From Yuukianura sp. NJ FZ-2021 (lineage: Eukaryota), in assembly GCA_046563655.1 (NCBI GenBank), contig CM102289.1, positions 7,254,001 through 7,318,000 on the forward strand: a stretch of 64,000 nt of DNA. Direction: 5' to 3'. Below, piece after piece: positions 15,766-64,000 of this stretch. A program made the translations under genes and the position numbers. Numbering within the stretch: position 1 is the first letter of the stretch; the number at the start of each line of letters is the position of its first letter. The notes under the pieces were generated by a model. That model saw only the letters and a program-made list of their open reading frames with translations. It was not told the DNA's origin and ran no database searches.

Positions 15766-18285
15766 CTTTGCAAAGTACGCTGTTTGTCCTTGGCTTTTTC
15801 GAAATTTCGAAAAATATTCTTACTCTTGCGGCTTATACAGTCCGTTATGACTTGTGAATGCAAGAACTTTGCATCTTCGAATTTTAAGATATTCCATTTC
15901 TACAGATTTCTTCTGAATTTCGCCACATCCTAAACAAAAGATTAACAACATCCTGTCTCAGCATCACACATGATTCATTTCCTCCTGGATTTCCAGTGCT
16001 AAAAGTCCTTTAGCAGGGCAATAAGGCTTTGATTACAGTAGAGCCTCGCATTGTGCAACTTTTAGCTCCGCCTCTCTGACGATTGGATACCGTAAAATCG
16101 CAGATTTTGGCGGGAATTTTACATTACAAACAAAACGCTATTGAATGTAATGTATTGGATTTTGAAATCTTTCAGATTCGGGGAAAACTCTTGTCTAAGC
16201 CAACCAATCAGAGCGTGTTGTGCAATGAGAGGTTCGACTGTACTTGCACTTCACGTTTCAAGAATTCGAATGAAAAAGAAACAACAAGATTCCAAGAAAT
16301 ATATCAAATCGCTTGACCTCTAAATTTTGACCTAAAATCCATGTGAAACAAAGCTTCGTTTTAAATAGAGCGATTAGCAGCTATTTCCACAACCATATTG
16401 CATAAAATGTAGGTCGGATGTATCCCATTAATCCTGGACAAAGGTTCCATCCGCCTTCACAAAAAATCCAAGAGTCGCACTTTTTTTTTGAAGATTAGGG
16501 AATTATATTTCGTAAAAAGCGTCTGGAGATTCGTTTTGGAAGTTGATGGAATTCCACTTGGAGAAAATAGATAAAGGAAGAAGATGAAGCTGTATTTTTC
16601 GCCTCTCTTCCTAAGCCTTATTTCCCACATTACCATATTTATAACTTTGGCCTTAATCAGAAAAAGTAGAAAGCAGCAGCCTCCTGCTTTCTCCGTATAA
16701 TAAGATTTGAGTGGAAAAGACAGATGACGAAACAAAGTTTCATTTCTTCTTCAATTCAATTGGATTTCGACGCTGCTTTGTGCTAAAAGGATTTCCAGCG
16801 ATTCCAGTAGCAGCTCATCCTCATCATTTCGCTTCTCTGACTTCTTTTATTCCCACACTCTCTTCTATCACACCACACCAAGAGGCGGATGATTGTGTGG
16901 GGTGGGAAGGGTCAGGGGGCGGTGGGAGTGAATTTGGCAGTATAGTACTGGATGCTGGATGCTGCCTAAAGGAATGTGCTTCCACTGTGATTCGTTGTGG
17001 AAATCATAAGAAAGTGTAAATCGGATGGAGTTCATTTCATATCTCGCTTTGTGACTCTGCCACACTTTCTCCTCATTCTGTATTCATACTTTCACCACGC
17101 TCCAAAAATCACGCACTTTCTCATCCGTTTTTGTCCAGTTGCTTTCACTACGTCCAAATTTACTTTAAAAAAATTGTTTTCTAATTTTTTTCTTTACAAT
17201 AAATCATATCAGTGAATTTTACAGGTTAAAATTTTACAATTTTACATTTTGTTATTAGGTCAACTAACAACAAAAATCAGAGAACCTTCGTCAAAAAAAA
17301 ACCCCAATTCCAATTGCATTTTTTTAAAAGTGATTTTTCAATTGGAAAAATGCAGGGTACGTTGAATCGGAATTTAGCGCTGCAATTTGAACCAAATGGC
17401 TAGAAAATCAAAACGCGCGTTACTCTTAAGATTAGATTGCCCAAAAGCATGTTGCCACTCAATTCGCGCTTAACTTTAACCAATCGCTTTCTCGCCTGCG
17501 AATTACTTCTGTGAAATGGGAATCGACACTGTCGTTGATGAGAATTGCTTTCACTATGTGCTTTCTTTGCACTTCAGTTTCACTTGAGTGCTGGTCGTGA
17601 TGATGATAGTAATGCTGGCGTTGGTTGTTATTGAAGATTTCAATGAAATGAAGTTGGCCCAGTATGAAGAAATCACTGAATCCTTAGTACTCTTTTTCGT
17701 AGTAGCCAATTTCTTCCATCTGCCTCAAATTATTTTCCTTTCACGCTCATTTCCTGGCAGCATCTTTCCAGTACTTTTTCCCTTACCGTTACTACTACTG
17801 CAAGTATCAATCTTCTTTCTCAGTCTCTCAATAATGGAGCATACTATCCGATCTTCCACTCAATTCATTTCCCCCTTCAGCATCAACATCACAACCTCTC
17901 AGTTGTGTCTGTCGGCTATCCTCCTTCCTTTCATTAGTTCTAACAATTTCTCAGAACTTACGTCTTCGGAATTTGTATTCAATCTGTGGCTTCAATTTTT
18001 TCTAGGCTTTAGAATGGATGGGTAATCACGAGGAACTGAAAACTACAAAAGAAGAACGTAATTTTGGATTCGTGGTGGTGTATCTTTAGTTCATGAATGA
18101 ATGTGATTGTCTTATTGTGAAAGATGGAGGAAGTATATTTTGCGTTGCGTTTATAGTTGCCAAAATAAGTTGTCTATGAGTTGTCTAGTGACTGACATCC
18201 AGTATCAGTTGAGATGATATAGTACGGTAGTAGTAGTGATGATGATGTTGAGGCTTTGAGTGTTGAGAAAAGAAGACTGTCCAAA

Positions 18286-19269
18286 TCAAACTCGCCACTG
18301 GAACAGTAAGAAAAACGATTATATGTGACGATTCTTGAATACTCAATTGTGTTTGGGGTTTGGAAATGCCTCACGTTCAAAACTGGATTGAAGCCACCCT
18401 CTCGAGCAACCTTGTCTTCAGCTTTCTCACGAGCTTCTTGGCGAGCTTTCATACGCTGAAATGCAGCAGAGTCTGGTAACCCTCGCTCTTGTTGTTCCTT
18501 TGCCCGTTTCTCAGCGGCACTGAGCATCTCACGCCGTTTGGCTTCTTCCTCAGTCTAGAATAGTATTAATCAAACTTGAATTAGAGTCGCTCAAGTAAAA
18601 GCACTGGATTTGGGTTACCTCATGTTCATGATCGATTCTTGGTCTTTTCGTAGAGAGGTTTTCTTCAGTGGTAGAATTTGAATGAGAACACGCAGTAGAC
18701 GTGGATGAAACAACTGGAGAAGCAGCTACTGAAGTTGAGGCCGTCGTGATCGTCCTGGAATGGCTCGTTGTTGTGGTGGTCGCTGTCTCTTCTTGAAGGG
18801 TGGGCGCTTGACGCTTGCCGGTAACTACAGACGAATCATTTCGAGCACAATGCCCAATTCCTGTGAATGGCTTGATTGGCTTGGAGGGTGAGGAGGACGG
18901 TCCGGCTCCACTGTTACCAGAGTTTGACCGAGATGGACCCTTTTTGTGTACTTCTTGCTGTTTTGTCCAATTAGCTTCAAACTCCCGGAGAAGATCGGGG
19001 CATTGCAAATTCGCCGCCGGCTCCCAGCTGTTGTCAGAGCTAAAAAGCGGATTGATTGATATAATTAACATTTCCAAACTTTCTCCTCTTATGATTCAAT
19101 AATACATTCTTACTTACTCCGGGTAATTTAACCATTTAATCAGATACTCAGTGCCAGTTTGCAGGGTTCGCTTCATCAATATTTTTTCCACAACGAATTG
19201 CTCATCACTGTCCGATCCTTCTGGAGCACAAGCAGCATAAAGCGTGTCCCAATCCCATTCTTCAGACAT
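18286..19269 (-). CDS. Chromodomain protein with an SVIP-like C-terminal module
   Basis: Exons 19118-19269, 18619-19039, 18375-18554 and 18286-18297 join in frame through canonical GT-AG sites. They give the chromodomain 'FVVEKILMKR..TEYLIKWLNYPDSDNSWEPAANLQCPDLLREFE', a Ser/Thr linker, then 'EEEAKRREMLSAAEKRAKEQQERGL...NPVLN-WRV*'. Confidence 0.75.
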
Positions 19270-19699
19270 CGCGATCGGTTGTAGTATTAAAGATCTAAAA
19301 CATTCCGTAACTGTAGTTTGTATTGGTCTTAATTTTGTATTGTGTAAGTTAACAACCTTACCAGCGTAGTCCGTGTACAGCAATTGTGAATTGATTGATG
19401 CTGATGAATGATGGTAGTAGAAATGATTGTAATGTACCTTCTCAATTTTAGCAGTTTAAACAGACATACATCATGTGTTTCTATGTGCGGAAGCGGATGC
19501 ATGTGAGCGGAACGGAGACAGAAAAAAAATTAAGATTTCCAAAAAAAATTGTTTGTAAACACAAAATCAAACATACGCGCCAAGGCAACTACGAGCGTCA
19601 CTATATCACTTGCTTTCCCCAAATCCAATCCAATATTCTACATTGTCCAAACTTTTATGAGTTTTGAACCTTGAACAACTTTTAGAATAAAAATAGCAT

Positions 19700-33600: not shown

Positions 33601-36600
33601 GAAGTTAACAGTTGTGCGTGGGCGTTTCATAAATATTTGCCAAAAAATGAAATTAGCATTTTCAAACCCATTTTCACACACCAGCGGCACAACCGTTCAA
33701 AACGTTCCATGACCAACGGAAGTTTGTTTAATATGTGGAGTCATATTCACTTACTGGGCTACAAAACTGTGTCCTAGAGCTTGACGGTAACGGTTGTTGA
33801 TTCTCGACATTGGAACTGGAAGATGTACTGGGACTAGAGAGTTGAGCTGCTGTCATGGCAACCGAACCTTTGTTTTCACTAAAGTTCGAATTTCCCATGC
33901 ATCCATTAGGCAAGAGAGTCGGATTTTCGGAAGTCGAAGTAGAAGCTGCTTGTTGTTGGTTCAGAGGACTCTGTAACACAAAACAATTTTGAAAACAAAA
34001 TAAAAATTTCTATTAAAAGAAAGTCTTGTTATCTGTTAAAAAATGTGAAAAAAAGACAATGTACAAGTTGAAATTTCATGTAAAAAAAAAGTTGAAACAG
34101 CTAGCTTGAATGTCTCAAAATGAAACTATGTCCAACGACTCGTAACATTTTAATTCTATTTCACACGCACGGAAAGGCAAATTTTCGACAATTTTCAGCT
34201 TTTTGAATTTTCCAAACTAAAAAAACTCAGTTTAGAGTACAACTTCATTAGAGCACAAAAATTGCATGCTTTATTTGTTTTTATCTGAAATCTCACTTGA
34301 AAGCTTTTAGTACTTTTTTTAGTACAGCTTAGTACCACAGGGTGTCTTCATTTTTTAAAAAATTAAACAAAATTTTTGGAGTATCTTTCCGTTTTCGTTT
34401 TTTTCTCCCTAAAAAAGAAAAGTAAAATCAAATTTGATGTCAAAATGTATAAGGCTCTGAGGGAGTTAAATTGTGCATGAATCTTTTTCTTTCAAATTAC
34501 TCTTGCCATTCTGTAACCATAGGCAGACTTGCTCTTATATGAAAACGCAGAGAAAGCATGGGAAATTTTCAACAAAAGTTCAGCATTCCCAGTTTCTTTT
34601 TTCTTCTAATAAGTTTTTCTAGGCTTCCAAGTTCTTTTTTCCTTTTTTGAATTTTCCCTCCTTATACTTTCACTCTCGGCATCTTATTTATGCAGAAGGT
34701 CGTAAACTGAGATAGAGGAACTACTTATGTCATTCTAAAGGCGCCCATTCACTACAGGATTTTCTGTGCTTTGGCCCTCCTCTGTCGCTTTTCTCATCGA
34801 ATTCGGATTTCTGTTGGTCCTAAAATTCTCATTTGCACTCCACAGATCTTCAGCGGCAAAGAAACTTCTTTGTCATCACTTCCACTTTCTCGAGAGCATC
34901 CCCAGATAATAAAACGAAACAAAGTTTACACACTACCAAATACGACTACATAGACTGTTTTGTGCTGGATTTAGAAATTTTGCAGAGGTGAAGCTATAAC
35001 GCTCGTTCTTGTCTCCATTCCAGCAGAAAAGTTCATAAAATGAAAACAGCGCCCGGAATTGGTCAAATTACGACGTGGGTAATAGAGAAAAGCGGGAAGA
35101 ACAAACAGGCCTTTGAAGAATAAAAGGAACCACAGAGTAACGTCTGTTCTTGAGTTCTGCCCAATTGTAAAAACAGAGAGACAAAAACATGAGTTTACAA
35201 AAGAAAATGGGAAGTTGTTGGGAAGATTTTCAACGGTTTTCACCAAAAACTTTTCAATTGGAAAACAAGTGTTTGAGCCTATTCCAATTAAACCTCTACT
35301 CTTTAATTGAAAATTAAACCCAAATCTTCTAAAGCTGTTTACTAGAAAAAAAAATAATCAAACTCAACGAAATTGGTTTTTGCAACATCGCACAAACTGC
35401 GCAACAGCGCACAAACTGCGCAACAGCGCACAAACTGCGCAACAGCGCACAAACTGCGCAACAGCGCACAAACGGCGCAACAGCGCACAAACTGCGCAAC
35501 AGCGCACAAACTGCGCAACAGCGCACAAACTGCGCAACAGCGCACAAACTGCGCAACAGCGCACAAACTGCGCAACAGCGCACAAACTGCGCAACAGCGC
35601 ACAAACTGCGCAACAGCGCACAAACTGCGCAACAGCGCACAAACTGACCGTTTACCAGAAATCTTACGGTACTGGGGGAGGCGCCTACTACCAATCCTCC
35701 AATAGTGATTTTTTCCCTTATTTAGAGAATCCACTATATAATTTGTCAAGTGAATAAAAAATCAAGTAAGAAAGGAATTGAGTAATAATTTGTTCGTCGC
35801 ATTTATCAAGCCACTCGAGAACAAAAGTTTTGTGTTGTTATCGACGTAGTGTTTTTGTGGATAGCCATTTTGCAGTCGTTCCATAAAATACACTAAAGCA
35901 CCCAACCACACCCAAGAAGGCAAAGATCACTTGGAACAAGTTATGTTACATTGGATCCAGATTGTGTAGTAAGAGTGTAAGATAAGAAGAACCAAGTTAG
36001 TAGTGTGATAAACCATTGGGGAAAGTCTTGGAAGGGAGTAAGACAAGTGAAAGTCAGTGCAAAGGAGAGCAATAGTCGTAAAGCAGATGTTGACTCACTA
36101 CTTTCTCTACTTTGAGAGGAAACGCCTTTAAATGTGGGCATTTTGAGTCCTTAAGCGTCAAATCCTTCATTCTTTTTTCTTCAAAGTGCTAAAGACTAAA
36201 AATCTTTGCGAACATTACACTACCTTTGCTACACTGTAGCAGAAGTCGTTGAGAATGGATTTGAGAATGGTTTTTTTTAGAATGCTTTTTTTTTTTTTGA
36301 AAATAGCATTTTGTGAAAAAGTATTTCGAAAGCGAGCGTTGTGGCAAGATAAAGAATCTGCATTCCCTGGCAGTCCTTACTTTTCCAATTCAAATTCCAA
36401 CTCGGGCGTCCTTGTTTACTCTCTTTTTTTTGGTTTTGAATTTACACACAATTCAGAACGGAATTTGAAATCAGAGCGGAAGTGAAAGCAGGTGAAATCC
36501 TTGACAGAGGATATTGGATAGGCTGACACGGACAGATTTGGGTTTGGAAACGAGAATGTGAAAACCTATCGTAAGGAGGCGGATCACATTTCCTACGGTA

Positions 36601-42250: not shown

Positions 42251-44006
42251 ATGAGTTCACATAAAGAATCTTCTTGTCCAGGTATTTGGAAATATCCGAC
42301 GGACAGAGTCACTCCGTTCAGAACTCCATTTGAATGGCTTCAAGGTAAAAAAAATATGATTTTTAGATAGTGTTAGTTTCTTAGTATTAAGATTTCCTGT
42401 AATAAATTCACTTCTTGTAGCAAAAAAGAGAGACGATGACATTGGCTTGCTTTGGAGAGTTCATGATAAATTATACGACCTGACATCGTTTATTCCGATC
42501 CATCCAGGGTGAAAACAGATAATTCATATTGGAAATAGACAACTTTTTTAAAAGTATATTTTGAATTTAGCGGTTCGGAATGGATCAGAATGACTCAGGG
42601 ATTGGACGTCACAGAAGCTTTCGAAGCACATCATGTTGTGAGGCACGAAGAAGTGGAGGGCATTTTGAAAAAGTACTTCGTTCAAGATGCACTTTCTCCC
42701 CGAAATTCACCTTATACATTCAAACCTAATGGATTTTATAAAACTTTGAAAAGGACAGTTGAACCTGTTCTAAAGGCAAGAAAAATAGTATTTCATTTCT
42801 TTAATACAGATTTTTTTATAGTTTAGAAAAAAAAATTTTTTTTAATTTTTTCTTAGAAAGTTGGAACAGGTCCATCCAGGAAAATCGTCCTCATGCAAGA
42901 TGGACTTGTTTTACTTTTTGTAATCCTGTCTTTGATTGGAGCTTGGAGAGGGTCAATGACCTTGGGCATTTTGGCGGGAATTATTTTGACCATGGCAGCC
43001 AATGGAGCACACAATTTTATTCATCTTAAAGAAAACTGGAGGAAGAATTACATGGATTTTAGTCTCCAGTCTTCATTTGACTGGAGAATTAATCACATTT
43101 TGAGCCATCACTTGTATCCCAACACAGTTCTCGTGAGAATTTTCAAGATTATGAAACTTTGTGTCGAAATTTTTTAAAAATTTACTTTCTGTTCTAAAAT
43201 CTAGGATTCGGAAATGTCCCTTGTGGAACCAATTTTTGATTTCAAAGTTTCCAGCCAAAAAGTTTGGATTCAAAAATATCTTCCAGTGATCTACGCGCTT
43301 CCGTTCTTTTTGTTCCTGATTTGGTTTGGATACTTTTCAAGATGGCGGAACATTATCAAGGGGATTCAGCCATTCCGTGTGCAGGAGTTGATCGTCCTAA
43401 CGCAACTTTTGATGTACTGTTTAATGGCGGGGAATTTACTACAAGGATTTGTGTTTTGGTGCCTCGTTCACACGTCTTGCTCCTTCTACTTTGGCCTGTT
43501 TTCTTTCACTGTCGCACATCATCATCCATCCATTTGGCACGACGGAGATGAAGCACGACCAGATCCGGACTTTGGGTAAAATAAATTTTCGAAATTTCAA
43601 AATTTTCAAAAGTGTCTTCCTTCTAGAAGGAAGGCGGATTCCAGAATAAGACAAGCTTCTGTCACCTGTCATCAAATGACTAATGGGTCAAATGTTATAT
43701 TTCAGTCTCTGTCAACTGGATGCAGTTAGAGAGCGATCTGACGTAATTTATGACAACCTATTCTTTGTCATGACACGCTACGGAGAGCACTCCCTACACC
43801 ATCTTTTCCCGTCAGTATGCCACTCAAAACTGTCAGTCCTTAAGCCAGTACTACTCAGCACACTGAGAAAATTTGAAGAGGAACTGCTCGCCTATCCAGA
43901 ATGGGAATTGTACCTGGGAACGTTCAAACAAATGCAAAAAACGGAAAAAAGTCAGTTCAGAAAACTTACAAAAGAAAATGAACGCCTCAAGGCATATGAC
44001 ATTTGA
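42251..44006 (+). CDS. Cyt-b5-r: Cytochrome b5-related protein (cytochrome b5 + fatty-acid-desaturase-like domain)
   Basis: Approximate exons 42251-42343, 42421-42508, 42571-42775, 42857-43132, 43205-43575, 43706-44006. Heme-binding '[41 protein letters not shown]'; His boxes 'AHNFIH', 'HILSHH', 'AHHHP', 'HSLHHLFP'. Confidence 0.9.
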
Positions 44007-47989: not shown

Positions 47990-50900
47990 TTAGTTTTCAG
48001 CAAACCAAATGTGGAGCCTTGCTTCGTTCGCTCTACGCCACTGGATGTTGCTTCTTATTATCTGCAAGTAGCTTTCTAAAGTTTGCCAAATGCTTTCTAA
48101 TTCTAGCGAATGATTTTTAATCATTCTTTCAATCTTAAATCAAAAAATGAGTCAATTTCAGTATTAATATAACTGTACAGAATTTTATGCTTTCCTACCT
48201 GTTCAAGTTCCTGTTCCGTTCCAATGTACAGTGTCAATGTCTCCACATAAGCAGCAACAGCTTCTACGCGAAGCACAGTAATAATTTCAGAGGCATAAAG
48301 TTCAAAAAAATTAGTCGTTTCAGATCTCGTAAGCGAGCTTGCACCAAGCCTTTGCAAAAATACGATTTTATCTGTTTCCGCAATTTCAGAAGTATCTTCA
48401 AGTATCGTTTCCAGAATCCTAAATTTTTATATAAAACACAATGTAGTATCCTTCGTATTGTTTCTTTGTTATTCAAGGAAGCTAATATCTGTTGCAATTT
48501 ACGCAAGGGGTAGTTCGGGGTCATTGGCACAGCCTAAGGCGTTCAAATAAAGGGCCTTGTCCTTGGCCGAACTTTCAGAATTTTGATATCGGTTTAAAGC
48601 CATTTCAAATTCCACGTCGGTTCCCGCCTGTACTCCACCGCAGTAGACCACTGGGCGAATATCCACTGGAATTCTAGATGAGTTTTCAAATTTTGAAACA
48701 AGTCATTAAGGCAGAATTAAAAAAAATATTTTCGAAATTGAAGACGCACGGATTAGTGTAAGGTGAGGGATCCCATTTTAAAAATTGTTCTGCGGCATAA
48801 GTGAGGCAGTCTTGCAGTCTTAATGCGCAGGCCCAATCCAGAAGCTGAGCACGCAAATATACTTTTGTTCCTAAATTCATTGTTAAAGGGTTGTTATTCT
48901 GAAAACGTTGAGAGTTCAATTGTTGAAGATGAATGAAGGTTTCAGGTTTGTTTTTAAAATTTACCTTTATCCTCTGGTAATTGTTCTATTCCAAGAGAAC
49001 GTAAAGATTCGCTTAGCTTCGGAACAAAGTATTCCTAGAAAAACAAAAGATTTTCTAAATTCGTTTAACCTTTTTTTCAATATTTAGTTTTTTTAAATAG
49101 TTTTACCTCAAAAGCTGTATAAGCTTCAGTTCCCGAAAGTTTATTTACGTAGCCCTCCAAGTGTGAAAAAACGGTGAACCATACCACGGCGTCAAGTTCT
49201 TGGCCCAAGTACTTTGTAAGTTCCAAAGCATTTTCAACCTCAGTAAATTCTGAAACGAAAGGATTTTTTAAAGGTTTGTTTAAAAAAATCTTTTCATCAA
49301 AAATTTATTTCAAAAATAATGTTTTGCAATACTTCGATCCACAAATGTAAAGTAGTCGTCGACAATTTGACTTCTACTGATGGTGCTAATCACGGCTGCA
49401 TTTTGGTTTAGTTGATCCAACAACAAGTTGAACAACGGAGCATCATATAAAACGCGATAGAAGCCTATCCATATTAAAAAAAAAGCATAAATGCATACTT
49501 TGTTATAAAACATAATAGCATGTAATTTGTATTATTTGTAAAAAATTACGAAATTCAAAGCAAAATTCTGTTTTATGCAAACAAAAAATTTACCAATTCC
49601 ATCAGCGTTAACTAGAATCCATTTTGTTGCATCGTATTCCTCAACGACTTTGAGTGCAACATCTTTTTCAATCCAAACGAGGTCAATGACCTCTGGCTCG
49701 TCAGCGGTTACAATTCCAACAGGAATCTCCCAAAGTTCATTGGGATCCAATGGTGACTCGTCCGAGTACTTGACGAGGTCAACAAATCTTTCCTAAAAAT
49801 TTCAAATTTTGGACATTGTGAAAGAAAATGTCGTCAAATTGCAAACGTAGACTTATAAACGCAACCAAAATGCAACATTTATCCGAAAATATTATTACTT
49901 GGGAAAGAAAAATTCGCGAGTCGGAGGATTTGGTGACCCGGACTAGCGGAAACCCTGATTGGTGGGACCAAGTATCCATAATGTCTTTGACAGTACGTTC
50001 TTCTGGAAGAGTTCCATCAGCGTGACCTTGTTTCGTCAAAACTAGAAACAAATCATCTTGGTCAGCAGCATCAAAACTCCTAAAAATCCCAAACAAATAG
50101 AAACATTTTCGAAAATTGCCGCCACAATAGTTTAAGTTTAGGACACTTCACAAAAAAACTTGAGCTCACAGTTGAGTAAGGTAATTGATGAGTCCCGTCT
50201 TCATTGTTTCTGGTGTTAGGAATCCCTCCATCATTCGAATGAGTGATCCCGCCTTTTCGTAAGTAATTCTGTCAAAGACTTCCATTAGTGTGTCGTAAGA
50301 CTGATTTGCGTGGGCGTAGTTTATTAGTGGATGAGTTTCCGGTGTTGCGTCAAAGATTAACGCAAGTTGGTTAATGTCGTAGTGTCTTAGGGTCAATGAA
50401 TCGTATTCAGGAGTCACTGCCGAAGTAGCAATTGGCGCAAAATAAGTTGCAAATCCTTCGTTCAACCAAATTTGATCCCAGAATTCAGCAGTGACCAGGT
50501 TTCCAAACCATTGATGCGTCTACGTAAAGGACAGAAAAATCAAAACTAAGGAAATTGTTTTTAATTATGCTTTTTGTGGGTAATACTTTTCTAGGTAAAA
50601 ATTTTACCAGTTCGTGTGCCAGAACGGAAGTAGTTCCTTCTCGCTCCACCTCAGAAGATATCTCTGAATAGTACATCAAAATAGATTCTCTGAAGACAAA
50701 AATCAATTGTTTAAAACGTTAACAATTAATGGTAAAATTTTAAAATTAATTTGAGTTTGCATGAAACCTAAAGTTAACCTGTAAAAATTTAATCCCCAGT
50801 TTTCCATTGCGCCAAACCAAAAGGCAGGGACTGCTACCGAATCCATTTTTGGCATTTTATAATCAATTCCAAAATAGTTTTCGAAAAATGTCAAAATTTC

Positions 50901-52168
50901 AGCGCCTTTTGTAGCTCCGTAGTCGCCACCGTTGAGTGGTTCTCTTATCAGATGTGGTGGACCATAAACCTAGCGAAATTTTTCCAAAATTCAAACATTT
51001 TGAACTTATTCTAATAAACCATCCAAAAAGCAATTGAGTTTTTGCTACCTTCACTGGTTTGTTAAATATTCCTGATTCTGCTTCTGCGTATGTATAGTTG
51101 GCTACAAGGATTGCCACGAGATACGAAGACATCTTTACCGTATTGTCAAATTCCTTCAATTTCCAACCATTTGGAATATCAGGGCTAAAAAACAATAAAA
51201 AATGAGAATTTACGTAACTATTTTAATCAAAAGTTAAACTTCCTCTAAGTAAGTTAATTTTGGCTAAAACGCAAGTTGGACACTGACACACAAAAAAAGC
51301 CACTTACTGGTCAATTTCGTTCAATTCTTCGGAATTACATAACGCAATGTATTTAGTAGAATCGTATCCAACAAAAAATTTGAATGTAGCTTTTGCCCAT
51401 GGTTCGTCGAAGCATGGAAACGCTTGTCTTGCCGCACTAGCTTCAAACTGTGTCGTAAGGACATTCCTGTATTGCAAGAATATTAGTATTAACAACTAAT
51501 ATTTTTGACAAACTTTGTTCAAATTTACGCAATTTCATTAGTATCTGGGTCAATATATCCCGTAAGGTAGATTCCATTCAGTTTTTCAGTAGCGATATAG
51601 GACGTGAAGTCGACTGACACAATATATGACCTTCCAGCTTGAAGTTTTGGCTCCACAGTTAAAACATAAAATTCATTTTCAATTTCGACATGTCCAGAAA
51701 CTACGTAATCCGTAGTGTCATTGGGGTCATCTGCTACCACCTGAAATCAGAAATTCAAAAAAATATAATGAAAAACACGCTTGAAACGTTTGAAAAATGT
51801 TTGTTTTTCAGTGTGTGTTTGAAATTTACATTTAGACTGGCTTCATCAACATCCAAATCCAACGCGTTGAGAGTGATTGTATTTGTGTCAACAATGGCCG
51901 TAACATTGATGCTGACTTTTCCTGGAATAGAATACTGCTCATACCCATCTACATCTGCGTCAATGATCGGCGTCAAATGAACTACATAGTGATTGGGCAA
52001 AACTTCGTTTGCCGGTAGTGGGGCCTTTGAAGAGCTCTTTGCACTTACCATGTCCACGTCATGTCTAGATGGAAATGGATACCCGCGATTTAATTGAACT
52101 TGGAAAGAAGGATTTGCATTTGTAAAGTACGCCAAAAAATAGGACAGAGCAAGCACGCTCAACTTCAT
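47990..52168 (-). CDS. Aminopeptidase N (M1 zinc metallopeptidase)
   Basis: About 17 exons. Signal peptide [13 protein letters not shown]; '[11 protein letters not shown]', '[19 protein letters not shown]', 'GAMENWGL', HEXXH '[15 protein letters not shown]', 'WLNEGFATY', '[10 protein letters not shown]', '[12 protein letters not shown]', 'GFYRVLYD'. Ends '[19 protein letters not shown]'. Confidence 0.95.
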
Positions 52169-52733
52169 TTTTAGTCGTGTTAAATTAAATGTAATTTTAG
52201 TTACAAGTTTAAGTAACAACGTAAACCTTGGTACTAAATTTGGTATGGTTAAAAGTGAATTTTAACAATTTTTTAAAATTATTTTATAACAAAGATGCAG
52301 CACACACTTCACAATTTAATCGGTGTAGTGTGGCGTCATATTATCTGATTTGTCCACTTGTACTCTAAGTGTTTTACGGGAATTCTCAAATTTGAAACAC
52401 AATAAATCTCGAATCACCCAAAAAATTATGACCTCATTGGTCCTGAGTCGAATGCTATCAATTCTAAATATTTATTTCCAAATAATTATTTTTTATTTTG
52501 CCGGAATACATATATTCTTATTCATCGTCATCTCCTTCGTCATTGAAGACCCTTGGATCGCCATCTTGATGATCTGCCTATAAAATATACAAAATATATT
52601 ACGTGTACACGTCTTGGACCACTTAAATCTCAACACAATTTAAAGCATTACTTAATTGAAACTAAAATTGTGTTCAAACTGTAAGCGATTACTACCCCAC
52701 GCTGCTCCTGCTGCGTTTTTATGCGATGAAATT

Positions 52734-53687
52734 TCAAAGCCCTCGAAAAGGTGTATGCTCTTGCTAATTCAAAGGTAAAACGTACAACATATTAACTTTT
52801 TCAAAGCTAGTAAATATTGGCTAAAGTTTCGGTAAGATCATACTACCTACAGCAAAATTAACTTACTAAGACATGCACATCGCCGTTCTCTGTGAAGAAT
52901 CTCATAAACCTGACGAAATCTTGAGCTATTACAGTAATAAAAACAAACGATACGATATTGATACTTAAAAAATCTTTAAGATTTGTTGCATTTAACCTAG
53001 AAAAGAAACAACGCTATGTGCCTTATACTTTTATATATAGAAATATGGGTTAACATAATACATGTTTGGCAACAGCAAGCAACAGTTATGTCCGTCATAA
53101 TTTTGAGAAAACCCAATGTGAAATTCACTGAATTGAAAATTTTTAGGAAAAGTTAATTTTTAGACTTACTTACAAATTTCTGGTGTCATAGAGAATTGAA
53201 CTTGATTTTGAGCCGGCAATGCGTTTTTGATGTGTACGACGCTAAAGATTCCATGAATGTCGAATAGGTTCTCTGCGATGCGGATGACTCTAAAAGTTGC
53301 TGAAAATGGGTCGCCCGTTGGCCGCAAGTCTCCCCCGGCAACCACTAAAAAAAATTGAGATTTATTATTATTTGTGTCCCATAAAAGCATCGAATCAAGA
53401 AATTCATTTAAAAATTAATTTTGTTGAGCCAACCTGTTTTGTTGTAGCCACCCAACGCAGTTGAAAGGATATAGTAGAGAATAAAATGGAATCCTTGGTT
53501 TGACGATTTGATCTCTAAAACCAAGTCTCTGTGTTCAAGCTTTTCTCCGATTCTTTGATCCACGGTGACATTGCACTTGAAAGAAAACATTGCTCTGTTA
53601 GCCTTGGTTCCAGTTCACCTCTTGTTCTAACGGGTATGAAATTATTGTTCTGTGTATTTCAACTGACGATGCTGAAATGGAACTCAT
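52734..53687 (-). CDS. Small uncharacterised protein, paralog B (ends QEHTPFRGL*)
   Basis: Exons ~53619-53687, ~53433-53575, 53174-53344, 52867-52925, 52734-52763, with a possible in-frame cassette exon at 53062-53127. It shares intron phases and the terminal 30-nt exon with 46871-47536. Confidence 0.6.
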
Positions 53688-53840
53688 ACATTTCACAAAA
53701 TTCTTGATCAAATTGAAGTTAAATATTATTTAGCAGAATCAACAGGACTGTGACAGTTTTCGCAGTTAGTTTTTTTATTACCATGCTTTCTGGTTCATAC
53801 TATGTAAAAAAAATGGTAATAACTAAGGAAATGAAAAAAG

Positions 53841-55232
53841 TTATGCTATTTCGCTTAAAACTTTAGAAACAGTGGCATATGAGGTTCGAATTTCCTGTGA
53901 TGTTGTACATAATGGTGGCATCATGTAGATAGTGTTTGCAAGAGGTCTTAGAATAAGTCCCTCCATTGGAAACTTTTTTTTCAAGTAAAGGTTTAAATCA
54001 AAGTCCCATTTTCCCGAAATTTCAAACCCAGAAATAGTCCCCAAATTCCTTGGTTTTACAACTAAGGTGCCAAGGCTCTCTGATAATTCTTTCAATCCCG
54101 TCACGTGAGCATCTTCGATTCTTTGAATAGAGGCAATTGTTTCTGGTCGTCTTAGAATTTCCAAGGATTTGATTGCTGCAGCACACGAAATGGGATTGGC
54201 AGTGTACGAATGTCCATGAACAAAGGCGGATTTAAAATCATCCCCAAGAAATGCTTCGTAAATTTCCTCAGTAGTAATTGTAAGCGCTAAAGGTAGAAAT
54301 CCACCCGTAATTCCTTTAGAAACACACAAAAAGTCAGGATGACAACGATCTGGAAGCTGCTCATGCGCAAAGAAAGTTCCAGTTCGACCAAATCCTGTCA
54401 TCACTTCGTCAAAAATTACTAAACAGGAATGTTGTCTCACAAGGTCAACCACTTTTTCCAGAAATTGTGCTCGGCACATGCGCATTCCACTAGCCCCTTG
54501 AACAAGCGGTTCCAAAATTATGGCGGCAATTGATTTTTCATTTTCGTTTAGATGTCGCTCCAATACAGTTAACGCTTCTGCTTCTTTATTTTCAACTTCA
54601 CTGTCGCCGTTCCAAGTCGCTGGAAATGGTACGAGCAGCGTTTCAAAAAATAAATTTCTGAAAGTATCGAAATAGCCTGAGCCACGACCAACAGACATTG
54701 CTCCAAATGTGTCACCGTGGTACCCACCTTCAAAGCACAAAAAGTGACGGCGTTCATGACTTTTACGGTTGATCCAAAACTGGTACGCCATTTTCAGTGC
54801 AACTTCGACAGCGGTAGATCCATTGTCAGAGAAAAAGAAACGTTTGAATTTTGGCGCCAAAATTTCAGTTAGAGATTCACAGAGAGTCACTGCCGGTTCG
54901 TGGGTAAAGCCAGCAAACATGACGTGGTCAAGGGATTTGGCTTGCTTAAAAATTGCTTCAGCAATTTCTGGATGGCAATGGCCGTGGATATTCACCCACC
55001 AACTGGACACGAGATCTAAGTAGGCTTTTCCTTTATCATCGTAAATGTAAGATCCACTGGCGCGAACAATTGGAATTGGATCTCCCGCCGTTTTTGCTTG
55101 TGTAAATGGATGCCAAATTAGCTGCAAATCACGTCCACTCAATGTTTTTTTGGTTCTAGGAAACTGATTTAAAAGTCCTCGTTTTTTGGATAAAGTTTGA
55201 ACAAACCTTTCCAGTTTTATTGAATTTTGCAT
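53841..55232 (-). CDS. bioA: 7,8-diaminopelargonic acid aminotransferase (class III PLP aminotransferase of biotin synthesis), bacterial type, intronless
   Basis: Single 463-aa ORF with BioA signatures 'IWHPFTQ', 'YLDLVSSWWVNIHGH', 'HVMFAGFTHEPA', 'FFSDNGSTAVEVALKMA', 'YHGDTFGAMSV', 'EPLVQGASGM', 'IFDEVMTGFGRTG', catalytic Lys in 'SKGITGGFLPL', 'HGHSYTANP', 'LRPLANTIY'. Confidence 0.97.
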   Translation of the reverse strand: MQNSIKLERFVQTLSKKRGLLNQFPRTKKTLSGRDLQLIWHPFTQAKTAGDPIPIVRASGSYIYDDKGKAYLDLVSSWWVNIHGHCHPEIAEAIFKQAKSLDHVMFAGFTHEPAVTLCESLTEILAPKFKRFFFSDNGSTAVEVALKMAYQFWINRKSHERRHFLCFEGGYHGDTFGAMSVGRGSGYFDTFRNLFFETLLVPFPATWNGDSEVENKEAEALTVLERHLNENEKSIAAIILEPLVQGASGMRMCRAQFLEKVVDLVRQHSCLVIFDEVMTGFGRTGTFFAHEQLPDRCHPDFLCVSKGITGGFLPLALTITTEEIYEAFLGDDFKSAFVHGHSYTANPISCAAAIKSLEILRRPETIASIQRIEDAHVTGLKELSESLGTLVVKPRNLGTISGFEISGKWDFDLNLYLKKKFPMEGLILRPLANTIYMMPPLCTTSQEIRTSYATVSKVLSEIA

Positions 55233-55562
55233 TGGTACGACCTTATAGTAACACAGAAAAACTGCTTAAAAAACAGTTGTAACTGCACCATGTGTCTTAA
55301 GTACTAACTGTAAAATGTAATTTCCAAGGGATTTTAGAGGTCTAAAGTGAATCTGTAGTGTGCATCGTAGACTATTACAATCAAAAGTAACTCCACTATA
55401 CTTATGCTAGTTGAAAAGTTCAAAAGTTATCTATTTTAGATAACAATGTTATTTCTATTTACTTTTTCAAACCGAGTGCAGTTAATTTAAGTTGTTGTTT
55501 TTTTGTTTCTTTTGAAAGGTTTGAGTAGCAATATTTGTGCATTAGAGATGCATGAAAAATAT

Positions 55563-58560
55563 TCACTCGTTTCGACGACTTTGCCATCGAGCACTGCTTG
55601 ACATTTGGAATTCGGAACTTCGGGTGTCAGCAACGGGTTGTCCAAGACAGCGGGAGAGGCCTGGACACTTGCGCAGAAGTGAAATTAGCTCTGAGCGGAA
55701 CTTGCTTCCCAAGATGGAGTAGAAGAAGAAGTTGACCGAGGAATTGACAATGACTGGGATAGAAGAGAAAACTTCGATGTCTCTGGGGTCATAGTTTCCA
55801 AAGGACACGAATACCCAGATGATAGTTCCATTGATTACGTTACTAATAACGAAAAAAATACTGACGCACAGAAGCATTACAGTCAGAGAGGTCATGTCAC
55901 TTTCACCTGACGCAGTCGACATAGAGCGGCGACTCCTAAGTGACTGTTTGACCTGTCAAAAATCATAAAAACTAAATAAGAAAACCAGTGATTTAAAAAA
56001 AAAAAAATTCAAATAAGGCGATTATAATCCATTTTATATTAATCTACGGTTGCGCGGTTACTCCAGCCCGATTATTTTCCCGATTATAATCGCCCAAAAA
56101 AGAATCCACAAAAAGGAGGATTCTTGCAGATTAATCTACCTTCACCCATATTTTTGAATTGAGGAATGTTAGGGTAGGAATTGGAACGACGTACATCAGA
56201 ATAGCCCAGAAATAACCGTGGTAGAATACTCTGTAAAAACGTTCTTGTAAAATGTTCGGCCGATTGTAACGTCGAACGAGCGTTTCTTGAAACTGAAACG
56301 AGTCATTTCCATGTTGTCTTAACTGAAAACCCAGTGTGGATCCAATAATTTCAAACCATCGCGGGAAATTTACAACAATGGCTCCAATGAAGACCAGAAT
56401 GCTCATGATAACTGCTTTTCGTTTGCTTGTCCAAAATCTAATTTGAAGTGGATAGCACACTGCAACAAAACGTTCAATTGTCACCAGAATTGTGATGTAA
56501 ACGGATGCTGTGTGTGCTAAAAAGAGTTAATGAGGTTTGATTTTTTTTAAATATTATAATTTAACTAGTACAATAACTTAAGTAATGTTAATAATACCTG
56601 TTTTACTTAACGGATAAACGAAGGTTGATTGAATTTGTTCGAGTGACCAAATGGCATGCATTGGATTTTCTCCGAGGATGGAAAATGAGGTCCTATCGCC
56701 TCGGATGGTGTAATAAATATTGAGGAATAGTGAAATCAATTTGAATCCATAAAGTGGCAGGGACACAATCAGTGTTCCTAAAAGTGTTAAATCAAACAGC
56801 GCAAGCGCAATCATGAAGCAGCTTGTTGAGCTCATCATGCTTTTCCTCGTCAGAACTGCAATGCACAAGACGTTTCCAAAAATACCAACGAAACAAATAG
56901 CACCTAGAACGCATATATAGACGTGGAAAATCGTAACTTCTTTTTGCGACTTGTCTTCATGTCGCAGTCCAAAAAAATGCCATGTCCCGTTCACTTTTCT
57001 TAAACTAGCTACATTTCCTACTTTTGTAGAGTTTGCATGTTCCAGAAATGTTTTGACTTGCACATTTTCTTCTCCAATTTGCTGCAAACCTTTGATTGTC
57101 AAGTTGACCATTGAAGTTTTCAAAAGTTGCAGCAAAACTTCGTCATTGATTTGATTGTACAAATTTACGGACTCTGTGTTATTGAAAACGAATGAAAAGT
57201 TTTCCAGGAACACTTTGTCCAGCTCACAGTTGTCCAATGTCAGAAACCGAAGTGATTTGAACAGGAAAGGCGCGGTCATTTTTAATTTGAGGTTGGTCAG
57301 GTACAACAAGCTCATTTGGTTCATCGATTCCGAAAATATTGACAGATCCAAGGTTACGTTTTGTGTTGAATCTCTGCGTTGAAGTTTTACAGAGCTGAGT
57401 TTGCTTAAGTTCCGTAAGAACTCGAATCCGCCAATAGCAAAGTCGAGATTCAACATATTTACTTCCTGTATGTTGTTGAACTTGATACCAGTGCTGTTGA
57501 ATGTTGTGTTGGAAAGTTCAAGTACCCTGAGCTGCGGTAACGCAGTCACTGTATCTGTTGCTGATGAGTAAACTAGATCTGCGGTTTGAAGCGTTAACGA
57601 AGTTAAGGATTCGCGATTGAGGTAATGCAAGTCGTACGTCGGAGTCGACATTTCAAATTTTACATTTTGTAACTTCAGGCTGAAACGAACAAAACAGACG
57701 AGTGCTAAATTATTAATTGAGCTCCATTGAAAGTTCAATTTGGAGTTTCTTACGTTTCAACTTGATTGAGTTTTTGAAAAAGTACGTTTGGCGAAGCATT
57801 TAAAAATGTTGTTGACCTGTAAGCTTCAAATTTAGTTACCCCAATGCCATTAAATTTTGACAAGTCAATAATAGTTTTTGTAGCTTCAAGTTTTTTGTAG
57901 GGAAAGTACTGCTGCAAGTCATATGGAATTCCTTCCAATTCCAAAGTCTCCGTAGAGTAATCAAAACTTCCACCAAATTCAGCCTGAATAGTTGTGGTTA
58001 TTTCGGCTAGAGAAGTTAAATTACCTTTAGGAACAAAGAACAGCGTGTCAAAAAATTCGGCGGAAGTGCTATCAGAAAACCCCCACTTTTTGCGCTCAAT
58101 TCTAACTTTGCGTAAGTGCGGAAAAAATATTTTGTTTTCAAAGTTTCCATTCCAAACAACGGAGTATAACTTGATGGTGGTTAGTTCGGTGCATTCCTTC
58201 AATTCATGTAGCAAAGTTTTCGGATCAAATTCCACTATAGTTAGTGTAAGGCCTTGAATTGCTGATTTATTTTCATACATGATTTTTTCAAATTTTTCAA
58301 ATGGGTAGTGTTCCAAATTTCCGCGTATTACTACTTCATCGTTCATCTAAAAAAATACATTATAATTTTCGGTTGTAAATTAAATATGTTGATCGAAATG
58401 AATCTTGAAAATTAGTGTTGCAAATGCAATTGCAATTATTAACTTTTAATGTTATGCATACCACGGTTTCTTGAAGACATTCCACATACAAATTAATACA
58501 AATTAAAATAAAAATTGCAAGAGAAAAGCGGCGCGATGATTTCCGCACGAGCGTAGGCAT
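55563..58560 (-). CDS. Class A GPCR (FMRFamide-receptor-like 7TM) with LRR-like ectodomain, copy 1
   Basis: Exons 58462-58560, 57754-58346, 56598-57679, 56140-56516, 55563-55952. Hydrophobic N-terminus; LxxLxLxxN/C repeats; TM1 'GIFGN', TM2 'LALFD', TM3 'HTASVYITILVTIERFVAVCYPL', TM4 'NFPRWFE', TM5 'YVVPIPTLTFLN', TM7 'NSSVNFFFY'. Confidence 0.85.
56017..56094. mobile_element. Small inverted-repeat (MITE-like) insertion in the last intron of GPCR copy 1
   Basis: 13-bp inverted repeats GGCGATTATAATC...GATTATAATCGCC. This intron is ~187 bp versus ~67-70 bp in copies 2 and 3. Confidence 0.4.
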
Positions 58561-58891: not shown

Positions 58892-61755
58892 TCAATGACT
58901 TCGACGATTTTGCAATCGAGTACTGCTTGACATTCTGAATTCGGAGCTCCGGAGATCAGCCACGGGTTGTCCAAGACAGCGGGAGAGGCCAGGGCACTTG
59001 CGCAGAAGTGAAATCAGCTCGGCGCGGAACTTCCTGCCCAAAATAGAGTAGAAAAGGAAGTTGACAGATGAATTGACAATGACTGGAATTGAAGAGAAAA
59101 CTTCGATGTCTCTGGGATCATAGCTTCCAAAGGACACGAATACCCAGATGATTGTTCCATTGATTACGTTACTAATAACGAAAAAAATACTCACACACAG
59201 AAGCATTACCGTCAAAGAGGTCATGTCACTTTCGCCTGACGCAGCAGACATGGATTGACGATTCTTCAGTGACTGTTTGACCTATCAGAAAAAGAGAAAA
59301 CGAAAAATAAAAACATTGATAAAAAAAATTGCTAGTTTTGATGCCCTCACCTTAATCCATATTCTTGAATTGAGCACAGTGAGTAGAGGAATTGGAATGA
59401 CGTACATGAGGATAGCCCAGAAGTAGCCATGGTAGAATTGCCTGTAAGCACGCTCTTGCAAAATGTTTGGCTCATTGTACGCTCGTATCAAAATTTTTTG
59501 CCATTGTGCTAGGTTCTTCGGATTCCTTTGCCTTTGCACTTTAATGGTAGAGCCAATAGTTTCAAACCAACGCGGTAAATTTACAACCACTGCTCCAATG
59601 AACACGATTATGCTCATAATAACTGCTTTCCGTTTGCTTGTCCAAAACCGAATTTGAAGTGGGTAGCACACTGCTACAAATCGCTCCAACGTCACAATAA
59701 TTGTTATGTACACAGATGCAGTGTGCGCTGAAAAGTTTTATATATTAGTTTTCTAGTATTTTAATATTTAAAATGCAACTTAATAAAAATAAAACTGTTA
59801 TAAAATTATTATTGTGCTCAAACCTGTTTTACTGAGGGGGTAAATATACTTGGACTGAAATTCTTCCAGCATCGTAACGGTTTCAATAGGCTGTTCTCCA
59901 AGAAGAGAAATTTGAGTTCCAGAACTCGCAACACCCCATGGAAAATCATAAATTCCGAGGAATAGTGACACCAATTTGAATCCGTAAAGCGGTTGAGATA
60001 AAATCAGCGTCCCCAGAATTGTTATATCAAACAGCGCAAGCGCAATCATCAAGCAGCTTGTAGAGCTCATCATAGCCCTCCTCGTCAGTACTGCAATTGA
60101 AACAACGTTTCCAAATATTCCAACCAAACAAAGGGCACCTAGAACGCATATGTAGACATAGAAAATAGTGACTTCTGTAGTTATTTCGTCTTCTGGTCGA
60201 ACTCCAAAAAATTCCCATCTTCCATTGTACTTGCGTAGTTTAACATAATTTCTCTGTTTTGTAGAATTTGCATCTTCCAAAAATTTAAACACCTTGGTAT
60301 TTTCTGCTCCGATTTGTTGCAGTCCTGTGATTGTTAAGTCTGTCATTGAAGTATTCAAAAGTTGCCGCAAAAGATCGTCGTTGATCTGATTTATCAGATC
60401 TACGTTTCGCAAGTGACTGAACATGTATGAAATATTTTCGACAACAGTGTCATCCAGGTCACAATATTCTAGTGACAGAGACCGGATAGACTTGAATTGA
60501 AATCGTGAAGTCAATGTTAGTTTTAGGTCACTGAGCGACAGCCATCTTATTGACTTCAGAGATTCCATAAGAATTGAGAGGTCAAAGGTCACTTTTTGCT
60601 TCGTATCGCTTTGGTCAATGGTTATTGATTCAAGGGAAGCCAAATTCCTTAGAAATTGGAACCCTCCGACTTCAAATTTGACGTTGCGCAGTTCCACTTC
60701 TGTCAACACTGTACTGTTGAATTTGATTCCAGCGCTGTTGAATGCGGAGTTGTAAATTTTAAGCGTATTCAACTTGGGCAGACTAGTTGGCTGATCGATT
60801 GATGCTGATGAATGGACAAGAACTGCATTGTCAATTGTCAACGACGTTAAGGATTCAGCATTGAGGTATTTCAAGTCATACGTTGGAACTGAATGTTCGA
60901 ATGTCGCATTTCGCAATTTCAGTCTGTGAAAAGATATAAAAAAAAAGTCGTGTTTACTTATAATTTGGTGCCGAAAATAATTTTGGTTTTCTTACTCAAC
61001 AATGTTGGTTAGTTTTTCAAGAAGTGCGTATGGCAAACGATTTAAAAATTTTGAACTCCGCACATCAAGTTTGGTCACCTCGCTTCCATTGAATTTTGAC
61101 AAGTCAATAACAGTTTCTACGGCTTCAAGGACTTTGTATGGAAAGTACTGCTGTACATCGTATGGAATTTGCTCCACATTTAGCTTTTTCATAAAATAGA
61201 CAAACTTTCCACCATGTTCAGGCTGAAGAATTGTGGTCATAGTGGCGATGGAAGCCAATTGCTCGTTTGTAGCATAGAACAAAGTATCCATAAAATGTTC
61301 CTGCGTGCTTTCAGCAAATCCCCATTTTTTCCTCCGAATCTCAACTCTGTATAATCTGGGTAGAGATACTTTCCCGCCAAATCGCCCATTCCATACAACG
61401 CCATTGAGCTTGATGTCAGTTAGGTTTGCGCATTCCTTTAGTTCTTGTAGTAAATTTTTTGGATCAAATTCAATTGCAATTAGTGTAAGGCCTTTAATTG
61501 CTGATTTATTTGCATATTGGATTTTTTCAAATTTTTCAAGAGGATAATGCTCCGGCTCTCCGCTAATTGTTACTTGATCCCTCAACTAAAAAAAGTATAC
61601 AACATCAATAGCTTTTGTTTGAATCGATTGCAAGTCAATTTTTGTTATATGTGTTAACATACCACGATTTCTTCTAGACTTTCTACATGTGGAAAAATAG
61701 ACGTTGCAAAAACAAAAATAGTCCAAGACTTAAGTACGAGTATGAAAATTGACAT
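58892..61755 (-). CDS. Class A GPCR (FMRFamide-receptor-like 7TM) with LRR-like ectodomain, copy 2
   Basis: Same five-exon layout as copy 1 (approximately 61663-61755, 60996-61585, 59824-60923, 59351-59727, 58892-59281). Contains 'VTLERFVAVCYPL' and 'NSSVNFLFY'. Confidence 0.85.
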
Positions 61756-62085: not shown

Positions 62086-64000
62086 TTAATGACTTCGACC
62101 ACTTTGCCAGCGAGTACGACTTGACATTACGAATTCGGAACTTCGGGGATCTGTCATTGGTTGTCCAAAGCAATTAGCTAGGCAAGGGCACTTGCGCAGA
62201 AGTGAAATTAGCTCTAAGCGGAACTTCTTTCCCAAGATGGAGTAGAACAAGAAGTTGACAGAGGAATTGACAATGACTGGAATGGAAGAGAAAACTTCGA
62301 TGTCTCTGGGATCATAGCTTCCAAAGGACACGAATACCCAGATGATGGTTCCGTTGATTACGTTACTAATTACGAAAAAAATACTGACGCACAGAAGCAT
62401 TACGGTCAGTGAGGTCATGTCACTTTCGCCTGACGCAGCAGACATGGATTGGCGATTCTTCAGTGACTGTTTGACCTATCAGAAAAAGAGAAAACCAAAA
62501 ATAAAAACATTGATTAAAAAAAATTGCTAATTTTGTTGGCCGCACCTTAATCCATATTCTTGAATTGAGCACAGTGAGTAGAGGAATTGGAATGACGTAC
62601 ATGAGGATAGCCCAGAAGTAGCCATGGTAGAATTGCCTGTAAGCACGTTCTTGTAAAATGTTTGGCTCATTGTACGCCCGTACCAAAATTTTTTGCAATC
62701 GTGCTATGTACATCGGATTCCTTCGCATTTGCACTTTAATCGTAGAGCCAATAGTTTCAAACCAACGCGGTAAATTTACAACGATGGCTCCAATGAACAC
62801 GATTATGCTCAAAATAACTGCTTTCCGTTTGTTTGTCCAAAACCGAATTTGAAGCGGGTAGCACACTGCTACAAATCGCTCCAACGTCACAATAATTGTT
62901 ATGTACACAGATGCAGTGTGTGCTAGAAAGTTATTTAATATATTAAAACACAATTCTATAAAAATAAAACTTTTATAAATGTACTCAATACCTGTTTTGC
63001 TCAGCGGGTAAATATACTTGGACTGGAATTCTTCCAGCATCGTAACGGTCTCAATAGGTTGTTTTCCAAGGAGAGAAATTTCAGTTCCAGAACTGAAATG
63101 GCCCCATGGAAAATCATAAATTCCGAGGAATAGTGACACCAATTTGAATCCGTAGAGCGGTTGAGATAAAAACAACGTCCCCAGAATTGTTATATCAAAC
63201 AGCGCAAGTGCAATCATGAAGCAGCTTGTAGAGCTCATCATAGCCTTCCTCCTAAGGACTACAATGGAAATGACGTTTCCTAAAATTCCAACCAAACAAA
63301 CACCTCCGAGAACGTATATGTAGACGTAGAAGATCGTAACTTCTGTTGTCGCTTTGTCTTCTGGTCGAACTCCCAAAAATACCCATCTTCCATCGTACTT
63401 GCCTAGCCTAACATAATCTCCTTGCTTCGTAGAATTTGCATCTTCCAAAAATTTAAACACCTTGGCATTTTCTGCTCCGACTTGTTGCAGTCCTGTGATT
63501 GTTAATTCAGTCATTGAAGTATTCAAAAGTTGGCGCAAAAGGTCGTCGTTGATCTGATTGGTCAGATATACGTTTTCTAACTGACTGAACATGAATGAAA
63601 TATTTTCGACAACAGTGTCATCCAGGTCACAATTTTCTAGTGATAGAGAACGGATTGATTCGAATTGAAATCGTGAAGTCAATGTTAGTTTTAGGTCGCT
63701 TAGCGACAGCCATCTTATTGACTTCAGAGATTCCTTAAGAACTGAAAAGTCAAAGGTCATCTTTTGCTTCATATTACTTTGCTCAATGGTTATTGTATTA
63801 AGGGAAGTCAAATTCCTTAGGAATTCGAATCCTCCAACTTCAAATTTGACGTTGCGCAGTTCAATTTCTGTCAACACTGTACTGTTCAATGTGATTCCAG
63901 CGCTGTTGAATGCGGAGTTGTAAATTTTAAGCGTGTTCAACTTGGGCAGAATAGTTGGGTGATCGATTGATGCTGATGAATGGACAAGAACTGCATTGTC
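62086..64000 (-). CDS. Class A GPCR (FMRFamide-receptor-like 7TM) with LRR-like ectodomain, copy 3 (5' end beyond the window)
   Basis: Exons 62992 to beyond 64000, ~62546-62922 and ~62086-62474. Highly similar to copy 2. Confidence 0.85.

Follow-up and report, generated by a model that had tools for sequence, protein, structure and literature searches.

Animals are biotin auxotrophs, and bacterial bio genes carried by hosts are among the clearest cases of gene transfer rewiring a nutritional partnership between host and symbiont. Such genes have so far been documented in a whitefly, a mealybug and other scale insects. The enzyme considered here, BioA, converts KAPA to 7,8-diaminopelargonate (DAPA) with SAM as the amino donor, and alone makes no biotin.

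Host-encoded bacterial bioA has already been published for whitefly, mealybug and ensign scale insect (PMC5664097, PMC13099577). PMC5664097 reports it from the whitefly Bemisia tabaci and the mealybug Planococcus citri. The ensign scale insect, according to PMC13099577, expresses bioD and two copies of bioA, all of alphaproteobacterial origin, which complement a symbiont in which bioB is retained; this bioA is Rickettsiales-like, resides in a compact host genome and is expressed in both embryo and adult. Transfers of bioD and bioB in scale insects, as well as a nematode bioB, are discussed in PMC10158165, while PMC3641634 describes no bioA transfer. A survey of the literature on bioA transfer in mites, springtails and other metazoans, made mostly from listings, returned no case outside Hemiptera.

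Here we describe a bioA gene within a 64-kb stretch of animal DNA, referred to below as the window. The whitefly gene (P0085, on a 92-Mb contig) resembles it in being stand-alone, in lying on an animal chromosome and in falling within the same clade of intracellular bacteria, and the two proteins are 58% identical. However, the whitefly protein has 434 residues and starts at the bacterial start with no leader, whereas window BioA carries one; it breaks none of the invariant alignment columns, of which window BioA breaks 12; and in the unconstrained trees it falls with Mesenet and Wolbachia (SH-aLRT 97; FastTree local support 96), whereas window BioA branches apart. Forcing the two together lowered lnL by just 3.65 units (AU p = 0.444), and because this grouping is not rejected, independence from the whitefly transfer is suggested rather than shown. 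Duplication of bioA is a feature of the ensign scale insect and also of the sample of study P1 (see below), where the second copy is about 10% divergent and has a different 3′ flank; this comparison draws on the published description.

The bioA genes of intracellular bacteria, including Wolbachia of bed bug and flea, Rickettsiales MAGs, Fokinia and Holospora, belong to the same clade at 56-62% identity and share a phenylalanine at the position of Escherichia coli Y17. Their bioA ends an operon, whereas that of the window is solitary and flanked by animal genes, with a new start and a leader. Solved BioA enzymes (3dod, of the B. subtilis type, and 1qj5 and 6ed7 from E. coli; E values of 1e-79 to 1e-82) match over the full length and have the PLP lysine, the aspartate, the glutamate and the mapped substrate residues other than Y17 in common with window BioA, but they lack a leader, and E. 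coli Y17 is F43 in the window. The BioD-BioA fusion of plants and fungi performs the same reaction in a eukaryote, yet the Arabidopsis protein (4a0g) matches window BioA at 176 bits in two stretches, compared with 281 bits for bacterial BioA. The fusion was rejected as an identity for the gene: the product has 463 residues and the single domain Aminotran_3, an in-frame stop lies 11 codons 5′ of the ATG, and no BioD-like sequence is present in the window. What is new about this locus is at most its host lineage, the diverged second copy in the host and the leader peptide.

Identity and conservation of the encoded protein

The reading frame extends from ATG to stop over 463 codons on the minus strand (1392 nt), and the features of the locus are collected in Table 1. 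Its product matches one Pfam domain, Aminotran_3, with an E value of 4.5e-101, and exceeds the cut-offs of two curated equivalog models for bioA in NCBIfam. TIGR00508 gives 533.5 bits against a cut-off of 405, with residues 39-459 aligned to profile positions 1-418 of 419, and NF004624 gives 505.9 bits against 494. All remaining aminotransferase models score far under their own cut-offs; for ornithine aminotransferase the figures are 181.3 and 378.4 bits. Solved BioA structures align with the protein over its full length (E 1.7e-82 to 6e-79). Judged by these matches, ORF 53841-55232 is a true BioA, the adenosylmethionine-8-amino-7-oxononanoate (KAPA) aminotransferase, of bacterial type. It is colinear with bacterial BioA from residue ~30 up to its C-terminal end, with indels of just 1-2 residues, and because of this colinearity the gene has no coding intron. 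The original prediction of an intact, stand-alone BioA ORF of 463 residues that lacks coding introns is thereby borne out.

Table 1. Features of the bioA locus in the window
Feature	Position	Strand	Basis or remark
bioA CDS, 463 aa, one exon	53841..55232	-	ORF list; TIGR00508; BioA structure matches; residue mapping
N-terminal extension, residues 1-29, absent from bacterial relatives	55146..55232	-	alignment
AATAAA hexamer, candidate polyadenylation signal (motif only)	53774..53779	-	62 nt past bioA stop
Spacer from GPCR stop to bioA ATG, 330 bp, 30% GC	55233..55562	-	
LRR-containing rhodopsin-type GPCR, at least 4 exons, upstream animal gene	55563..58346	-	Pfam, ORFs
M1 aminopeptidase, at least 8 exons (N domain, catalytic domain, ERAP1_C domain), downstream animal gene	48502..52168	-	

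The same prediction held that all PLP and substrate motifs are present, and this is accurate with one exception. Nine of the ten catalytic or substrate positions of E. coli BioA that were checked by alignment are kept in the window protein. E. coli K274, the PLP-binding lysine, corresponds to K306, and D245 and E211, which hold the cofactor, correspond to D275 and E241; these three window residues are invariant across the alignment of 21 sequences. Among the substrate positions of the E. coli enzyme (W52, W53, Y144, R391 and Y17), W52/W53 are matched by W78/W79, Y144 by Y171 and R391 by R429. Also kept are G112/S113 (G138/S139), D147 (D174) and R253 (R283). The sole mapped position that differs is Y17, replaced by F43, and a phenylalanine at this site is common to all 20 of the closest relatives of window BioA.

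In 155 columns of the alignment the 20 other sequences do not vary, and at 143 of these the window protein has the same residue. The 12 columns that are broken, among them E46A, P126A, I270C and Y441L, are the most for any of the 21 sequences (others 0-6), and such breaks are compatible with somewhat relaxed constraint or with altered specificity. Six of the ten variants listed within the ORF (at least ten occur in the contigs described below) are protein-changing, and one, K216N, hits a column that is invariant across all 21 sequences. As read from the alignment, constraint on the gene is clear, and some relaxation or change may also have occurred.

The first 30 residues of the protein are basic, with eight K/R and one D/E, and no comparable basic extension was found among its 120 closest proteins, taken from 8000 that were scored. 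The window protein lacks a methionine where the bacterial proteins start, and the next one in frame is M105. Because of this absence, and because a start at M105 would remove W78/W79, the upstream ATG, which lies 28-29 codons 5′ of the bacterial start, is the only usable one. The make-up of the leader is that of an organelle presequence, and it may be an organelle-targeting peptide. A structure model (mean pLDDT 70.2, from a 21-row alignment) draws leader residues 2-21 as a helix at pLDDT below 50, and owing to this value the helix is considered unreliable and is not counted as evidence. The 330-bp spacer contains a pyrimidine-rich stretch that ends in AG ~30 nt 5′ of the ATG, and it is speculative whether this is a putative splice or trans-splice acceptor.

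The relative synonymous codon usage (RSCU) of bioA correlates at 0.70 with that of host exons (8274 nt) and at -0.21 to 0.645 with that of 13 bacterial bioA genes. Its GC3 of 32.8% is at the low end of host exons (32-52%) and within the range of the bacterial relatives (18-65%), and its overall GC content is 41% compared with 37.2% for the whole window. Composition is weak evidence, because the GC3 value falls in both ranges. Nevertheless, host-like codon usage, the AATAAA hexamer and the obligatory leader can be read as signs of domestication.

Genomic setting and junctions

The genes on either side of bioA are animal genes. The GPCR gene has two introns of ~80 nt with the boundaries GTAAGA..TTTCAG and GTATTA..TTTTAG, and it heads a tandem series of three paralogues, with the second and third occupying 58892-61585 and 62086-64000. 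The closest database relative of a GPCR exon is 31% identical and the next matches are ~28% identical. Eight of the ten organism-named matches are hemipteran FMRFamide-type receptors (~28% identity), and the lead from the atlas search was GRL101/LGR-like. Because the closest database relative is just 31% identical, the trio is a lineage-specific receptor expansion. On the other side, an exon of the M1 aminopeptidase gene reached at most 54% identity in a search of 1.84 billion representatives.

The distance originally given between the GPCR stop and bioA, 330 bp, is correct: the stop codon starts at 55563 and the bioA ATG lies at 55232. By contrast, the ATG of a second neighbour, called paralog B and placed 153 bp past the bioA stop, finds no support as a gene start. 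This ATG, at 53687, begins a frame of only 29 codons with no family match, and the first family-supported exon of the M1 peptidase has its ATG at 52168, 1672 bp downstream of bioA.

Other genes in the window encode a P450, KRI1, a Kelch protein, a VOMI protein, a RasGEF, a cytochrome-b5/desaturase fusion and an NDK-Dpy30 protein. A KRI1 exon is 57-60% identical to those of ticks and wasps, 51% to that of an annelid and 51-54% to those of fish. In a KRI1 tree of 28 rows the window sequence has a long branch (2.07) and belongs neither to the tick clade (support 100) nor to the insect clade (97); it is joined to the annelid Owenia under a long-branch warning. Rfam returned no match, and neither of two atlas searches pointed to a usable taxon.

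Several further features of the window were observed. At 42539-44006 on the plus strand a cytochrome-b5 domain is followed by fatty-acid desaturase exons, an arrangement that looks like a fused b5-desaturase gene, with weak Pfam scores. ORFs with weak chromodomain matches at 18174-19455 on the minus strand are a possible remnant of a chromodomain-bearing retroelement or of a chromo protein gene. At 35382-35646 a 19-nt unit is repeated in tandem 13.9 times (98% matches), and the presence of open frames in many registers there is attributable to this array. A polymorphic 150-bp insert lies at 55986-56137 in a GPCR intron; contigs of all four sequencing runs described below skip it and carry 37 other letters at that place. 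The insert is MITE-like, with a perfect 13-nt inverted repeat (56017-56029 and 56082-56094), and it is a dispersed repeat because the depth of its bin is ~10-20x that of neighbouring bins.

Linkage between bioA and these animal genes was examined with contigs from four public sequencing runs (X1-X4, from two studies) aligned to 51500-58500; these are assembled contigs, not raw reads. The window may itself derive from the first study, P1; the study of X4 is independent and its organism is differently labelled. Both flanks are bridged by contigs from each study, in support of the junctions as assembled. From P1, record 9 of X2 spans 51672-54297 and runs from an M1 exon into bioA, and record 14 of X2 (55099-55791) and record 21 of X3 (55079-55693) run from bioA into the last GPCR exon. 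From the second study, record 26 of X4 spans 53087-54811 with 43 differences and record 27 spans 54825-55757 with 34 differences. The X4 organism is ~3% divergent from the window (2.5-3.6% differences in both junction contigs). The bioA gene is physically linked to host genes.

The same runs contain a related sequence. Record 6 of X1, record 10 of X2 and record 20 of X3 are ~90% identical to the 3′ part of the ORF, gap-free over 341-462 nt, and all three diverge fully from the window 5 nt past the bioA stop. Because contigs of this identity part from the window after the stop, a second bioA copy, ~10% divergent and with another 3′ flank, exists in the P1 sample. None of the 12 indels listed in the contig comparison falls inside the bioA ORF. 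In X1 and X2, two runs of the main sample, the longest contigs reach 403 kb and 275 kb, against maxima of 5.6 kb and 13 kb for the remaining runs; a bacterial associate at high coverage, or another type of library, could account for this.

Relatives and origin of the gene

The best 120 of the 8000 proteins scored are 56-62% identical to window BioA, none is closer, and all carry the same single Pfam domain. Every source-named row among them is called BioA except one “unnamed protein product”, which is a diaminopelargonic acid synthase in UniRef. Twenty rows among these 120 carry the name of an organism: ten are Wolbachia and two Fokinia, and the rest are one each of Midichloriaceae, Jidaibacter, Mesenet, a Rickettsiaceae MAG, an alphaproteobacterial MAG, Bartonella sp. 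A05, Bemisia tabaci and Trichonephila clavata, so named, so that 18 of the 20 are bacteria. Within named genomes, identity is highest for Bartonella sp. A05 and a Rickettsiales MAG, both at 59%, followed by a MAG titled Rickettsia typhi at 58% and Holospora obtusa at 56%. A metagenome scan for closer relatives, from which 80 of 591 confirmed loci were kept, found none above 52% identity, and most of its loci are other class-III aminotransferases.

A maximum-likelihood tree was built from 67 rows; besides the window it included 42 loci out of a set of 80 and 24 of the 120 proteins, picked so as to sample them broadly. Window BioA falls inside a clade of 40 rows (SH-aLRT 100) that holds Rickettsiales, Holosporales, Puniceicoccales MAGs and Bartonella A05, and within it occupies a branch of 0.57 in a basal position that lacks resolution. 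A FastTree analysis of the 120 proteins and 21 loci recovered the same region. There the window joins the long branches of P0119, Cyrtobacter and Puniceicoccales MAGs with a support of 90, and a long-branch warning applies elsewhere in this group. The trees support a donor gene of the BioA type found in obligate intracellular bacteria such as Rickettsiales and Holosporales.

Two relatives, L002 and L003, have bioB set off from a series bioF-x-bioC-bioD-bioA, where x is an unnamed ORF without an NCBIfam match and bioA is the last gene. No bioB, bioD, bioF or other bacterial remnant besides bioA was found in the 64-kb window by tblastn with the 1165 ORFs of 30 bacterial bioA loci. The search gave 76 HSPs, of which 75 lie in bioA itself and one is a marginal 34-aa match at 15312-15395. 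These comparisons show that bioA in the window, to judge from its relatives, derives from this operon type but is solitary, its operon context having been lost.

Two further parts of the original prediction are supported here. The lack of bioB, bioD or bioF neighbours agrees with the tblastn result, and the proposed bacterial origin is upheld by nesting within the clade of intracellular bacteria at SH-aLRT 100, by the lack of any closer animal relative and by the bridged junctions. Grouping with vertically inherited animal class III aminotransferases, named in advance as the contrary outcome, was not observed, and the protein lies inside the bacterial BioA clade.

Mechanism, alternatives and implications

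Taken together, the sequence comparisons indicate that this is a genuine bacterium-to-animal transfer of bioA, integrated in the host, and that the transferred gene is very probably functional. The explanation that we favour, and hold to be probable, is that an animal nuclear genome received a copy of bioA from a Rickettsiales/Holosporales-type bacterium with an obligate intracellular life, and that the gene would still encode a KAPA aminotransferase. A single gene, the last of a donor-type operon, would have been copied, and it is now a stand-alone, intronless host gene between the GPCR and M1 aminopeptidase genes. Its product most likely still makes DAPA from KAPA with SAM as the amino donor, given that most PLP and substrate residues are kept. 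Translation would have to start at the upstream ATG, adding the basic leader, which may send the enzyme to an organelle. The biotin pathway would then be shared with other host genes or with a symbiont. We infer the expression, activity and targeting of bioA, and the sharing of the pathway, from these features of the sequence. As the original prediction had proposed, the gene would give its host part of the biotin pathway.

A more elaborate version of this history can be offered only tentatively, and we regard it as doubtful: the host would not be a sap-feeding hemipteran, and it would have captured a Rickettsiales-type bioA independently, duplicated it and gained a basic presequence, so that the KAPA-to-DAPA step would take place in an organelle and the pathway would be split between host and bacterium.

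Should the transfer be real but the gene silent or decaying, it would be of no use to the host. Its unusually large number of broken invariant columns (12 of 155) and the six non-synonymous changes among the ten listed ORF variants would be in keeping with such decay, which we nevertheless judge rather unlikely, given that a 1392-nt frame is still open in DNA of 41% GC and that 143 of the 155 invariant columns and nine of the ten mapped residues are kept. Moreover, the copies that differ by ~10% align without gaps over 341-462 nt, none of the 12 listed indels affects the ORF, the gene is also kept in a second organism ~3% divergent from the first, and a usable upstream ATG has taken the place of the original start codon. 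It is very unlikely that the gene is a neofunctionalised class-III aminotransferase performing another transamination outside the biotin pathway. The phenylalanine that replaces E. coli Y17 is common to all 20 of the closest relatives, which come from bio operons; W78/W79, Y171 and R429, the remaining substrate residues that were mapped, are unchanged; and the bioA equivalog cut-offs are passed, whereas other aminotransferase models fall far under theirs. What speaks for such a change of role is the solitary position of bioA with no bio neighbours, the lineage-specific replacements at otherwise invariant columns, and F43 itself.

Intracellular bacteria with near relatives of this bioA are common in invertebrate sequencing samples, and the record filed under the spider Trichonephila clavata falls among Wolbachia sequences, both of which invite the suspicion of an assembly chimera or contamination in which a bacterial fragment was misjoined to animal DNA. 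This explanation is highly improbable here, where both junctions are spanned by contigs from two studies, one flank has animal exons no more than 330 bp away, the rest of the window is without bacterial sequence, the nearest bacterial protein is just 62% identical, and neither the start codon nor the leader is bacterial. Vertical descent from an animal class-III aminotransferase of the OAT, AGXT2 or ABAT type, which would share the Pfam family Aminotran_3, is refuted by the equivalog scores, the best relatives and the maximum-likelihood tree, and retains practically no probability. The ornithine aminotransferase model reaches 181.3 bits against its cut-off of 378.4 while the bioA models pass, the source-named rows among the best 120 relatives (56-62% identical) are called BioA with one exception, 18 of the 20 organism-named ones are bacterial, and bioA is intronless among intron-rich animal neighbours.

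If the host were a scale insect or a relative of one, the finding would be essentially already described. One more instance of this route, having a second copy that has diverged and a newly gained leader, would show how repeatable it is. With such a gene one could also test how eukaryotic start, targeting and 3′-end signals come to be added to an enzyme of bacterial origin.
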